This document shows positions 2,871 through 4,325 of a DNA stretch of 12,984 bases, piece after piece. The stretch is from a virus (taxonomy: Duplodnaviria > Heunggongvirae > Uroviricota > Caudoviricetes), in the IMG/VR virus record IMGVR_UViG_2859799533_000002; one strand, written 5' to 3'. The notes below the pieces were generated by a model. The model was not told where the DNA came from and ran no database searches. It was given only the letters and a program-made list of their open reading frames with translations. The position numbers and the translations under genes were made by a program. The first letter of the stretch is position 1, and each line of letters begins with the position of its first letter.

Positions 2871-3193
2871 TTTTTTGCCCGTCCATATTCAACGGCTTCT
2901 TTGAGGAGTTCATTTTCCATCGTTTTCTTGCCGAGCAGGCGCTGGAGTTCTTTAATCTGCTTCATGGCGGCAGCAAGTTCAGAGGCAGGAACAACCTGTT
3001 CTCCGGCGGCCACAGCAGTAAGACTTCCTTCCTGGTATTGCTTACGCCAGAGAAATAACTGGCTGGCTGCTACACCATGTTGCCGGGCAACGAGGGAGAC
3101 CGTCATCCCCGGTTCAAAGCTCTGCTGAACAATTGCGATCTTTTCCTGTGTGGTACGCCGTCTGCGTTTCTCCGGCCCTAAGACATCAATCAT
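2828..3193 (-). CDS. insC: IS2 InsC (orfA, helix-turn-helix)
   Basis: The ORF-track ORF 2828-3238 contains [26 protein letters not shown]..., the known InsC N-terminus, 15 codons in, so the real start is at 3193 (121 aa). Overlaps insD as expected for the IS2 frameshift arrangement. Confidence 0.85.
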
Positions 3194-3284
3194 CTGTACT
3201 CCAATGACTAGTCTAAAAACTAGTATTAAGACTATCACTTATTTAAGTGATACTGGTTGTCTGGAGATTCAGGGGGCCAGTCTA

Positions 3285-3307
3285 ATCAGTAAGTTGGAGT
3301 CATTACC
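3285..3307 (+). mobile_element. IS1 right-terminal remnant (last 23 bp)
   Basis: ATCAGTAAGTTGGAGTCATTACC is identical to the last 23 bp of the IS1 copies ending at 7377 and 9351. Confidence 0.85.
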
Positions 3308-4325
3308 CGCCGACTGCCTGGAATTTATCTGGTCGTTACCCGAAAATTCTGTTGACCTGATAGTCACGGACCCGCCGTACTTTAAAGTGAAGCCTGAGGG
3401 CTGGGATAACCAGTGGAAGGGCGACGATGATTACCTGAAGTGGCTGGACCAGTGTCTGGCGCAGTTCTGGCGGGTGCTGAAACCTGCCGGAAGTCTTTAC
3501 CTGTTCTGTGGTCATCGCCTGGCATCTGATATCGAAATCATGATGCGTGAACGCTTCAGTGTGCTGAACCATATTATCTGGGCGAAGCCGTCCGGACGCT
3601 GGAACGGATGCAACAAGGAAAGCCTGCGGGCGTATTTCCCCGCCACAGAGCGCATTCTGTTCGCGGAACATTATCAGGGGCCGTATCGTCCGAAAGATGC
3701 CGGGTATGCGGCGAAGGGCAGTGCACTGAAACAGCATGTGATGGCCCCGCTGATTTCTTACTTTCGTGATGCGCGAGCTGCCCTGGGGATAACGGCAAAA
3801 CAGATTGCAGATGCCACAGGAAAGAAAAACATGGTGTCGCACTGGTTCAGTGCCAGTCAGTGGCAGTTGCCGAATGAAAGCGATTATCTGAAATTACAGG
3901 CGCTGTTTGCCCGGGTGGCAGAAGAGAAGCATCGGCGTGGTGAACTGGAAAAGCTCCACCACCAGCTGGTGGATACGTATACCTCACTGAACCGGCAGTA
4001 TGCGGAGCTGCTGAGTGAATATAAACATCTGCGGCGGTATTTTGGCGTGACGGTGCAGGTGCCGTATACCGATGTGTGGACGCATAAACCGGTGCAGTTC
4101 TATCCCGGGAAACATCCGTGCGAAAAACCGGCAGAAATGCTGCAGCAGATAATCAGCGCTAGCAGTCGTCCGGGTGACCTGATTGCAGATTTTTTCATGG
4201 GGTCGGGTTCGACAGTGAAAGCGGCACTGGCGCTCGGGCGTCGTGCAATTGGCGTTGAGCTGGAGACTGAACGTTTTGAGCAGACGGTTCGGGAAGTACA
4301 GGATTTAGTCAGCCAGAACGGATGA
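3308..4325 (+). CDS. N6-adenine DNA methyltransferase (N6_N4_Mtase-like, motif IV before motif I), 5'-truncated; apparently an orphan
   Basis: DPPY motif (LIVTDPPYF) near the N-terminus and an FxGxG AdoMet motif (DFFMGSGST) near the C-terminus. Native sequence begins at 3308 directly after the IS1 terminus (..PADCLEFIW), so the first codons are missing; the ORF-track ORF 3150-4325 is a chimera that starts inside IS2. No restriction endonuclease partner is visible in the window. Confidence 0.8.

Follow-up and report, generated by a model that had tools for sequence, protein, structure and literature searches.

Can a phage DNA methylase gene that has lost its first codons to an insertion sequence (IS) still give a working solitary enzyme from a start codon that the IS supplies? 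This question is raised by a 12,984-nucleotide stretch of DNA (IMG/VR record IMGVR_UViG_2859799533_000002), called the window here, in which an open reading frame (ORF) for a DNA methyltransferase begins inside IS2 and IS1 sequence. CP026866.1 contains the window at 100% identity (L006, positions 6798-19781). The original prediction was that transcription could read out of the IS2 end and express the fusion as an orphan adenine methylase with an epigenetic role. We find that the gene is very probably a silent, 5′-truncated remnant of an M.EcoGII-family phage methylase, located in a decayed lambdoid prophage of Shigella boydii, and that it is probably neither transcribed nor translated at a meaningful level.

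The junction between the IS sequences and the methylase gene is made up of the following features (nt, nucleotides; aa, amino acids; IRL and IRR, left and right terminal inverted repeats).

1336..1953, + strand: left part of IS1 (nt 1-618), split by IS2; blastn against the intact IS1 copy at 6610-7377, 99.4% identity.
1954..3284, - strand: complete IS2 of 1331 bp, with IRR at 1954 and IRL at 3284; identified by its ORFs and by Pfam HTH_Tnp_1 and rve.
Start at 3238/3193, - strand: IS2 orfA, transcribed away from the methylase.
2870-1965, - strand: IS2 orfB, transcribed away from the methylase.
3285..3307, + strand: IS1 right-end remnant of 23 nt (nt 746-768, the terminal inverted repeat); repeat analysis and blastn.
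3308..4325, + strand: methylase remnant, beginning with base 3 of native codon 14 and ending at the native stop; homology to phage methylases begins at 3308.
3150..4325, + strand: chimeric ORF; 391 aa from GTG 3150, 373 aa from ATG 3204, 343 aa from TTG 3294.
3369..3380, + strand: motif IV, DPPY; read from the sequence and invariant in 52 homologs.
4194..4208, + strand: motif I, F-M-G-S-G (FxGxG); F, G, S and G are invariant in the 52 homologs and M is at least 90% conserved.

The predicted frame is real. It runs for 391 codons from GTG 3150 to TGA 4323-4325, and the closest in-frame stop upstream of the GTG is at 3126. The in-frame ATG, previously placed at 3203, was off by one base and lies at 3204-3206. 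Repeat analysis and blastn bore out that the methylase is truncated at the IS1 end and that the frame stays open through IS1 and IS2 sequence, and both DPPY and FxGxG can be read directly from the chimeric frame. The 23-nt IS1 end is identical to 7355-7377 and 9329-9351, the ends of intact copies. Matches to the IS2 are labeled "IS3-like element IS2 family transposase" in related records. Beside IRL, 127 bp of IS1 (nt 619-745) are absent. The 5-bp flanks of IS2, CTCAG (1949-1953) and ATCAG (3285-3289), are similar and non-identical. A 5-bp IS2 target duplication inside IS1 was considered and rejected, because these flanks differ and 127 bp of IS1 are gone. Most simply, the gap suggests that IS2 inserted and that a neighboring deletion, or recombination between copies, came afterwards.

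An open upstream frame of this kind is common in the window. Going upstream from arbitrary codon positions, an in-frame ATG, GTG or TTG is reached ahead of the next stop in 58% of cases and an ATG in 36%; at 23% of the positions, 52 or more upstream codons are open. The chimeric extension is most likely no more than chance, a by-product of where the next stop falls.

The methyltransferase assignment was confirmed by Pfam and by motifs. The protein matched PF01555 (N6_N4_Mtase) with 148.4 bits against a cutoff of 26.7, over profile positions 1-219 of 221 (E = 4e-43). Its motifs follow the beta-class order, with motif IV (DPPY) in the N-terminal part, then the target-recognition region, and motif I (FxGxG) in the C-terminal part. 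It is a beta-class DPPY...FxGxG amino-methyltransferase; the predicted specificity for adenine is likely from its family. PHROG profiles also matched the remnant to DNA methyltransferase families. When the model of the intact, 94% identical homolog P0018 was searched with Foldseek, M.BceJIV, M.MboIIA, CcrM and M.RsrI were matched at probability 1.00. These enzymes (M.BceJIV: 8URK, 9C3U) share the fold and two similar conserved blocks; they differ in being only ~20% identical, in being sequence-specific and in lacking the long helical insert.

The window protein is 95% identical (321/338) to the methylase of phage 1720a-02 and 92% identical, over the shared part, to a Shiga toxin 2 (Stx2) phage methylase. 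The enzyme of phage 1720a-02 has been named as very similar to M.EcoGII (PMC5778455), and kinship with M.EcoGII was judged through this proxy rather than by direct sequence comparison. M.EcoGII is reported to be 349 aa long, and a homolog cluster of this length is 90% identical to the window protein; the cluster representative, P0025, had no 100% match within the phage collection. Judged by sequence, the window gene is an M.EcoGII-family beta-class methylase of lambdoid/Stx-type prophages.

M.EcoGII is a typical beta-class enzyme from a very large family of E. coli prophage methylases and methylates adenine in any sequence context (PMC5778455). By analogy, the same sequence-independent formation of N6-methyladenine (m6A) may be expected of the window enzyme in its complete form. 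M.EcoGII and M.EcoGI (E. coli O104:H4 C227-11, PMC5778455) share with the window protein the N-terminal DPPY, a central helical target-recognition region, the C-terminal FxGxG, a prophage origin and the lack of a partner endonuclease. In contrast to them, the window gene lacks the first 14 residues and its native upstream region. M.EcoGII is silent in its own lysogen, constitutive expression gave slow-growing and unstable clones, and its authors propose that it is expressed only upon prophage induction (PMC5778455). An enzyme that is harmful when constitutive and silent in the lysogen argues against a standing "epigenetic" role.

We compared the locus with its intact relatives. Matches to the region came from 309 phage records, most of them Stx2-converting phages, and among the best matches listed the annotated features are "DNA methylase" followed by tRNA-Met/Ile, Arg and Arg. 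In phage Stx2_EH2201 the order is Q, a small ORF, the methylase, three tRNAs and stx2AB; phage 1720a-02 has the same order. The closest intact layout is that of an stx-free prophage of E. coli O121, which carries an antiterminator, a small ORF, a 352-aa methylase (NZ_CP119441, 1942327-1943385), tRNA-Ile/Arg/Arg, a SASA esterase and a holin; both it and the window lack stx and both have the esterase (at 5105 in the window). The "DNA methylase" genes found between Q and ileZ-argN-argO in Stx2 phages and stx-free prophages (LC567829, KF030445, NZ_CP119441) are 94-97% identical to the window gene in nucleotides and are likewise followed by tRNA-Ile/Arg/Arg and then the SASA esterase. The window differs from this group in having IS1::IS2 in place of Q, the small ORF and the terminators, in the absence of stx (as in the O121 prophage), and in its esterase, which is also truncated by IS1.

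The term "orphan methylase" holds in part. Among the window ORFs that were scanned with Pfam, none resembled an endonuclease, and no endonuclease adjoins the gene as in a Type II restriction-modification system: its neighbors are IS2/IS1 and tRNAs here, and Q, the small ORF and tRNAs in the relatives. This is not a result of decay, since the intact phage and prophage genes between Q and the tRNAs also lack a partner. Thus, being an "orphan" is the normal state of the family and the gene was not newly orphaned. Its place in a lambdoid late region, flanked by integrase, tRNA cluster and esterase and without an endonuclease, is that of the M.EcoGII family.

The orientation of IS2 bears directly on whether the gene can be expressed. 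Its ends read 5′-TAG at 3284 (minus strand) and 5′-TGG at 1954, and by published definitions the 5′-TAG end is IRL and the 5′-TGG end is IRR (PMC3299598). The end that abuts the methylase is IRL. A weak indigenous promoter just inside IRL, PIRL, drives orfA (PMC3299598); here it points leftward, away from the methylase. IS2-created fusion promoters are known to activate ampC, acrEF and neoR (reviewed in PMC9330008). The window resembles these cases in having an IS2 end directly upstream of a promoterless gene. However, the known cases use an outward -35 in IRR spaced to a -10 upstream of the gene, whereas here IRL faces the gene, 23 bp of IS1 lie between, and the -35 of IRR is 1.3 kb off and faces the other way. 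No -10/-35 pair was found at the IS2/methylase junction (+ strand, 2700-3308). The predicted read-out transcription from the IS2 end does not fit this geometry.

Other routes of transcription have to be considered, because read-through from IS1, or antisense transcription across IS2, could yield a small amount of message that is translated from ATG 3204 or TTG 3294 into an active truncated enzyme. S. boydii would then have a solitary adenine methylase, largely non-specific and acting in an epigenetic or anti-restriction role, which is the idea of the original prediction. A consensus scan of the + strand found no sigma-70-like site in 1971-3308. Only two promoter-like sites are present on the + strand upstream, at 1343-1370 (IS1 left end) and at 1943-1971 (IS1/IS2 junction). 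The first faces the gene, and the stretch from 1100 to 3400 showed no intrinsic terminator, which favors read-through. Against this, both sites occur at chance frequency and lie at least 1.3 kb from the gene, across antisense IS2. IS2 with IRL toward downstream genes is classically regarded as strongly polar, a property that we do not use as evidence. The candidate starts have no Shine-Dalgarno (SD) match either: the anti-SD duplex energies were +0.3 kcal/mol at GTG 3150, +0.9 kcal/mol at ATG 3204 and -2.1 kcal/mol at TTG 3294, compared with a window mean of -2.7 and values of -8.9 and -10.3 for nearby real genes.

The native control region is missing as well. Phage relatives have terminator-like hairpins upstream of the methylase and after the tRNAs (the latter at L001 3823-3842 in the Stx2 phage), and this layout fits Q-dependent late expression. 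Late transcription that depends on Q and reads through terminators is known Stx-phage biology, and the methylase would be one of the genes reached in this way. We considered the left flank of IS1 as a carrier of the methylase 5′ end and rejected it: no methylase 5′ sequence is present left of IS1 at 1336. Everything between the neighborhood of the integrase and codon 14 is therefore lost, Q and the late promoter/terminator region with it.

We aligned full-length homologs (52 sequences, 73-95% identical to the intact reference P0018). Compared with the intact 352-aa gene of Stx2 phage Stx2_EH2201, whose N-terminus reads MFNTVKISSCELIN|ADCLEF, the window gene has lost 41 nt, or 14 residues (MFNTVKISSCELIN). 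No catalytic motif lies among these 14 residues. Among the 52 homologs N14 is invariant, and N3, T4, V5, S9 and L12 are at least 90% conserved. The D16 of the conserved N-terminal "NAD" is retained in the window protein, a point in favor of an active fusion.

The lost part is predicted to be a conserved structural element of the catalytic domain. In the AlphaFold2 model of P0018, strands are placed at 3-7 and 10-14, with pLDDT (predicted local distance difference test) values of 81-89, followed by a helix and a strand leading into DPPY. In a published AlphaFold2 model of M.EcoGII the Rossmann catalytic domain comprises residues 1-134. The sequence alignment to M.BceJIV, which has a solved structure, begins at native residue 8, so the lost strand is part of the shared core. 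In the modeled 373-aa chimera, pLDDT stays below 50 throughout IS-derived residues 1-34 and strand 10-14 has no substitute, which is weak evidence because the alignment is uninformative in this part. The catalytic domain of an M.EcoGII-family enzyme is thus incomplete in the window protein, with residues 1-14 missing. With the invariant N14 lost together with the two strands predicted to open the catalytic domain, and no replacement in the model, any product would probably be impaired, which weighs against an active fusion.

The locus itself is present in public data. The 373-aa product is deposited as SPZ86614.1, "DNA methylase [Shigella boydii]". The 343-aa product is deposited as WP_072037218.1, "MULTISPECIES: DNA-methyltransferase [Shigella]", which begins at TTG 3294 in the IS1 remnant. 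Neither the type of element nor its family is new, and the exact protein was known before. Junction and gene are identical in seven long Shigella contigs. An exact search of genome_contigs for the 50-nt IS2/IS1/methylase junction gave no match, and the source was reached by way of exact protein identity. The order in Shigella is an ABC-transporter permease, a periplasmic binding-protein gene, a lambda-type integrase, IS1::IS2, the methylase remnant, tRNAs and the esterase; past the esterase, further IS1 and IS600 copies differ by strain. An untruncated version of the window allele is also present, in a Logan assembly (P0016, 386 aa). It has an intact N-terminus, is otherwise almost the window allele, and contains an internal duplication of ~34 residues around KHPC, which is probably an assembly artefact. 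In E. coli SY033 (L013, NZ_CM185152.1, 4254-4541) an IS3-family element has independently truncated the same gene, leaving ~96 codons. IS insertions in this methylase gene therefore recur. The SY033 copy is annotated as a pseudogene and the Shigella copy as an intact protein, so public annotation is inconsistent.

Several observations speak against a silent remnant. RefSeq lists WP_072037218.1 as an intact 343-aa protein and not as a pseudogene. Downstream of the junction the coding sequence has no frameshift or stop and keeps 133 of 133 family-invariant residues, DPPY and FxGxG among them; the sole change at a 90%-conserved position, P230L, is also found in the N-terminally intact allele P0016. 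The ratio of nonsynonymous to synonymous substitution rates was 0.15-0.17 for the window gene compared with intact homologs, the same as when intact alleles are compared with each other (0.12-0.20). It therefore gives no positive indication of decay, but it mostly reflects divergence predating the truncation and is uninformative either way. The native start also has a weak SD (-3.3), so that little weight attaches to the missing SD. Transcripts may also reach the gene by read-through from the IS1 promoter (1343-1370) or arise from pervasive antisense transcription across IS2. The low pLDDT of the IS-derived residues is expected, since the alignment holds no homologous sequence there, and the AlphaFold2 models are moderate overall (mean pLDDT 62-67; 66.8 for P0018).

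The expressed fusion gains further from engineered N-terminal fusions to M.EcoGII, which are tolerated, and from the occurrence of the identical junction and gene in at least seven long Shigella contigs. However, those loci were picked for an exactly identical protein, in strains that are closely related, so their identity is silent on selection. The intact remaining ORF reflects a recent event and likewise says nothing about selection. The cost that constitutive M.EcoGII imposes on growth and on clone stability also stands against it. The chimeric S. boydii product would contain the residue stretch SKLESLPADCLEF. Taken together, low-level expression of an active truncated enzyme is quite improbable. 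Slimmer still is the chance that the IS leader provides a usable start and low read-through, giving a constitutive trace of an N-terminally remodelled, active, non-specific adenine methylase; if true, a phage anti-restriction enzyme would have been domesticated and would place diffuse m6A on the S. boydii chromosome. The solitary epigenetic methylase of the original prediction is not supported, given the absence of promoter and SD signals, the unreplaced conserved N-terminus and the harm of constitutive M.EcoGII.

A silent remnant can be explained by a short series of events. The locus would be the decayed late region of an Stx-phage-like, stx-free lambdoid prophage with the ancestral order Q antiterminator, small ORF, methylase, tRNA-Ile/Arg/Arg, (stx), esterase and lysis genes. 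The methylase would have been a phage anti-restriction enzyme, made only under Q-dependent late read-through of the upstream terminators. IS1 would first have inserted 41 nt into the methylase gene. Everything from the integrase to that point, including Q and the late promoter region, would then have been lost. Later IS2 would have entered IS1, and 127 bp of IS1 were presumably deleted. The outcome would be a promoterless gene without its first 14 codons, by chance in frame with IS1 and antisense-IS2 sequence.

The neighboring features of the prophage remnant are as follows.

1..1119, - strand: lambda-type integrase, 372 aa, at the left edge of the prophage remnant; Pfam Arm-DNA-bind_1 and Phage_integrase.
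4328..4356, + strand: promoter-like site, TTGAAG, 17-nt spacer, TATTAT, upstream of the tRNAs; would serve the tRNAs and not the methylase.
4366-4441, + strand: tRNA(CAT), tRNA-Ile/ileZ in the annotation of relatives; ARAGORN.
4449-4525, + strand: tRNA-Arg(TCG); ARAGORN.
4539-4615, + strand: tRNA-Arg(TCT); ARAGORN.
4630..4647, + strand: terminator-like hairpin with a T-run, after the tRNAs.
5105..6493, + strand: SASA-family esterase with N-terminal DUF1737, 462 aa, truncated; Pfam, and PHROG 143 positions 1-474 of 634.

In the Shigella contigs L004-L010 the integrase adjoins the ABC-transporter permease and periplasmic binding-protein gene (Pfam BPD_transp_1; Lipoprotein_8/SBP_bac). The O121 prophage, an Stx2 phage and phage 1720a-02 share the hexamers and spacing of the site at 4328-4356. 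From these sequence features the tRNAs may still be expressed although the prophage is dead. This raises another possibility, that the segment is kept for a host-useful tRNA cluster (Ile/Arg/Arg, rare codons) with its own promoter, and that the methylase is merely carried along. The three tRNAs are intact, with the conserved promoter-like site directly upstream and a terminator after them. In addition, the block 3255-4325 is unchanged in 7 of 7 contigs with the esterase still following, and the outer flanks are IS-rearranged by strain. Such conservation among near relatives is nevertheless expected without selection, and the short methylase 3′ end may simply have escaped a hit so far. Retention for the tRNAs is a tentative reading that we consider rather less likely than not to apply, and it is compatible with a silent methylase remnant rather than exclusive of it.

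The esterase is cut by sequence replacement upstream of the intact IS1 at 6610-7377; full-length relatives have 617-621 aa. A draft Shigella contig (L002) has the same truncated methylase, yet carries the full esterase and the lysis genes. Further right, 8148-8514 and 12618-12984 form a perfect 367-nt inverted repeat from two opposite IS600 copies. The AlpA/Bro-N segment between them has the opposite orientation in strain L008, which fits inversion via IS600 recombination. A second integrase fragment (9379-9807, 142 aa, Phage_integrase only) is boxed by the IS1 copies 8584-9351 and 9781-10548. It is followed by the AlpA-like and Bro-N genes and looks like the remnant of another integrative element. 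The ORF at 11561-12625 (354 aa, GTG start) has no Pfam match, is similar to phage repressor PHROGs only in its last ~50 residues, and extends into IS600. It was not called by the gene callers in the source genomes and is probably spurious or another chimeric frame.

For Shigella, the methylase remnant is one more IS-disrupted gene in an IS-riddled genome and matters little as it is. It calls for caution in annotation, because both public "DNA-methyltransferase" models, of 343 and 373 aa, take their first codons from IS1 or IS2 and are best read as 5′-truncated M.EcoGII-family remnants, not as intact enzymes. The locus would become interesting only if motif-independent m6A could be traced to it.

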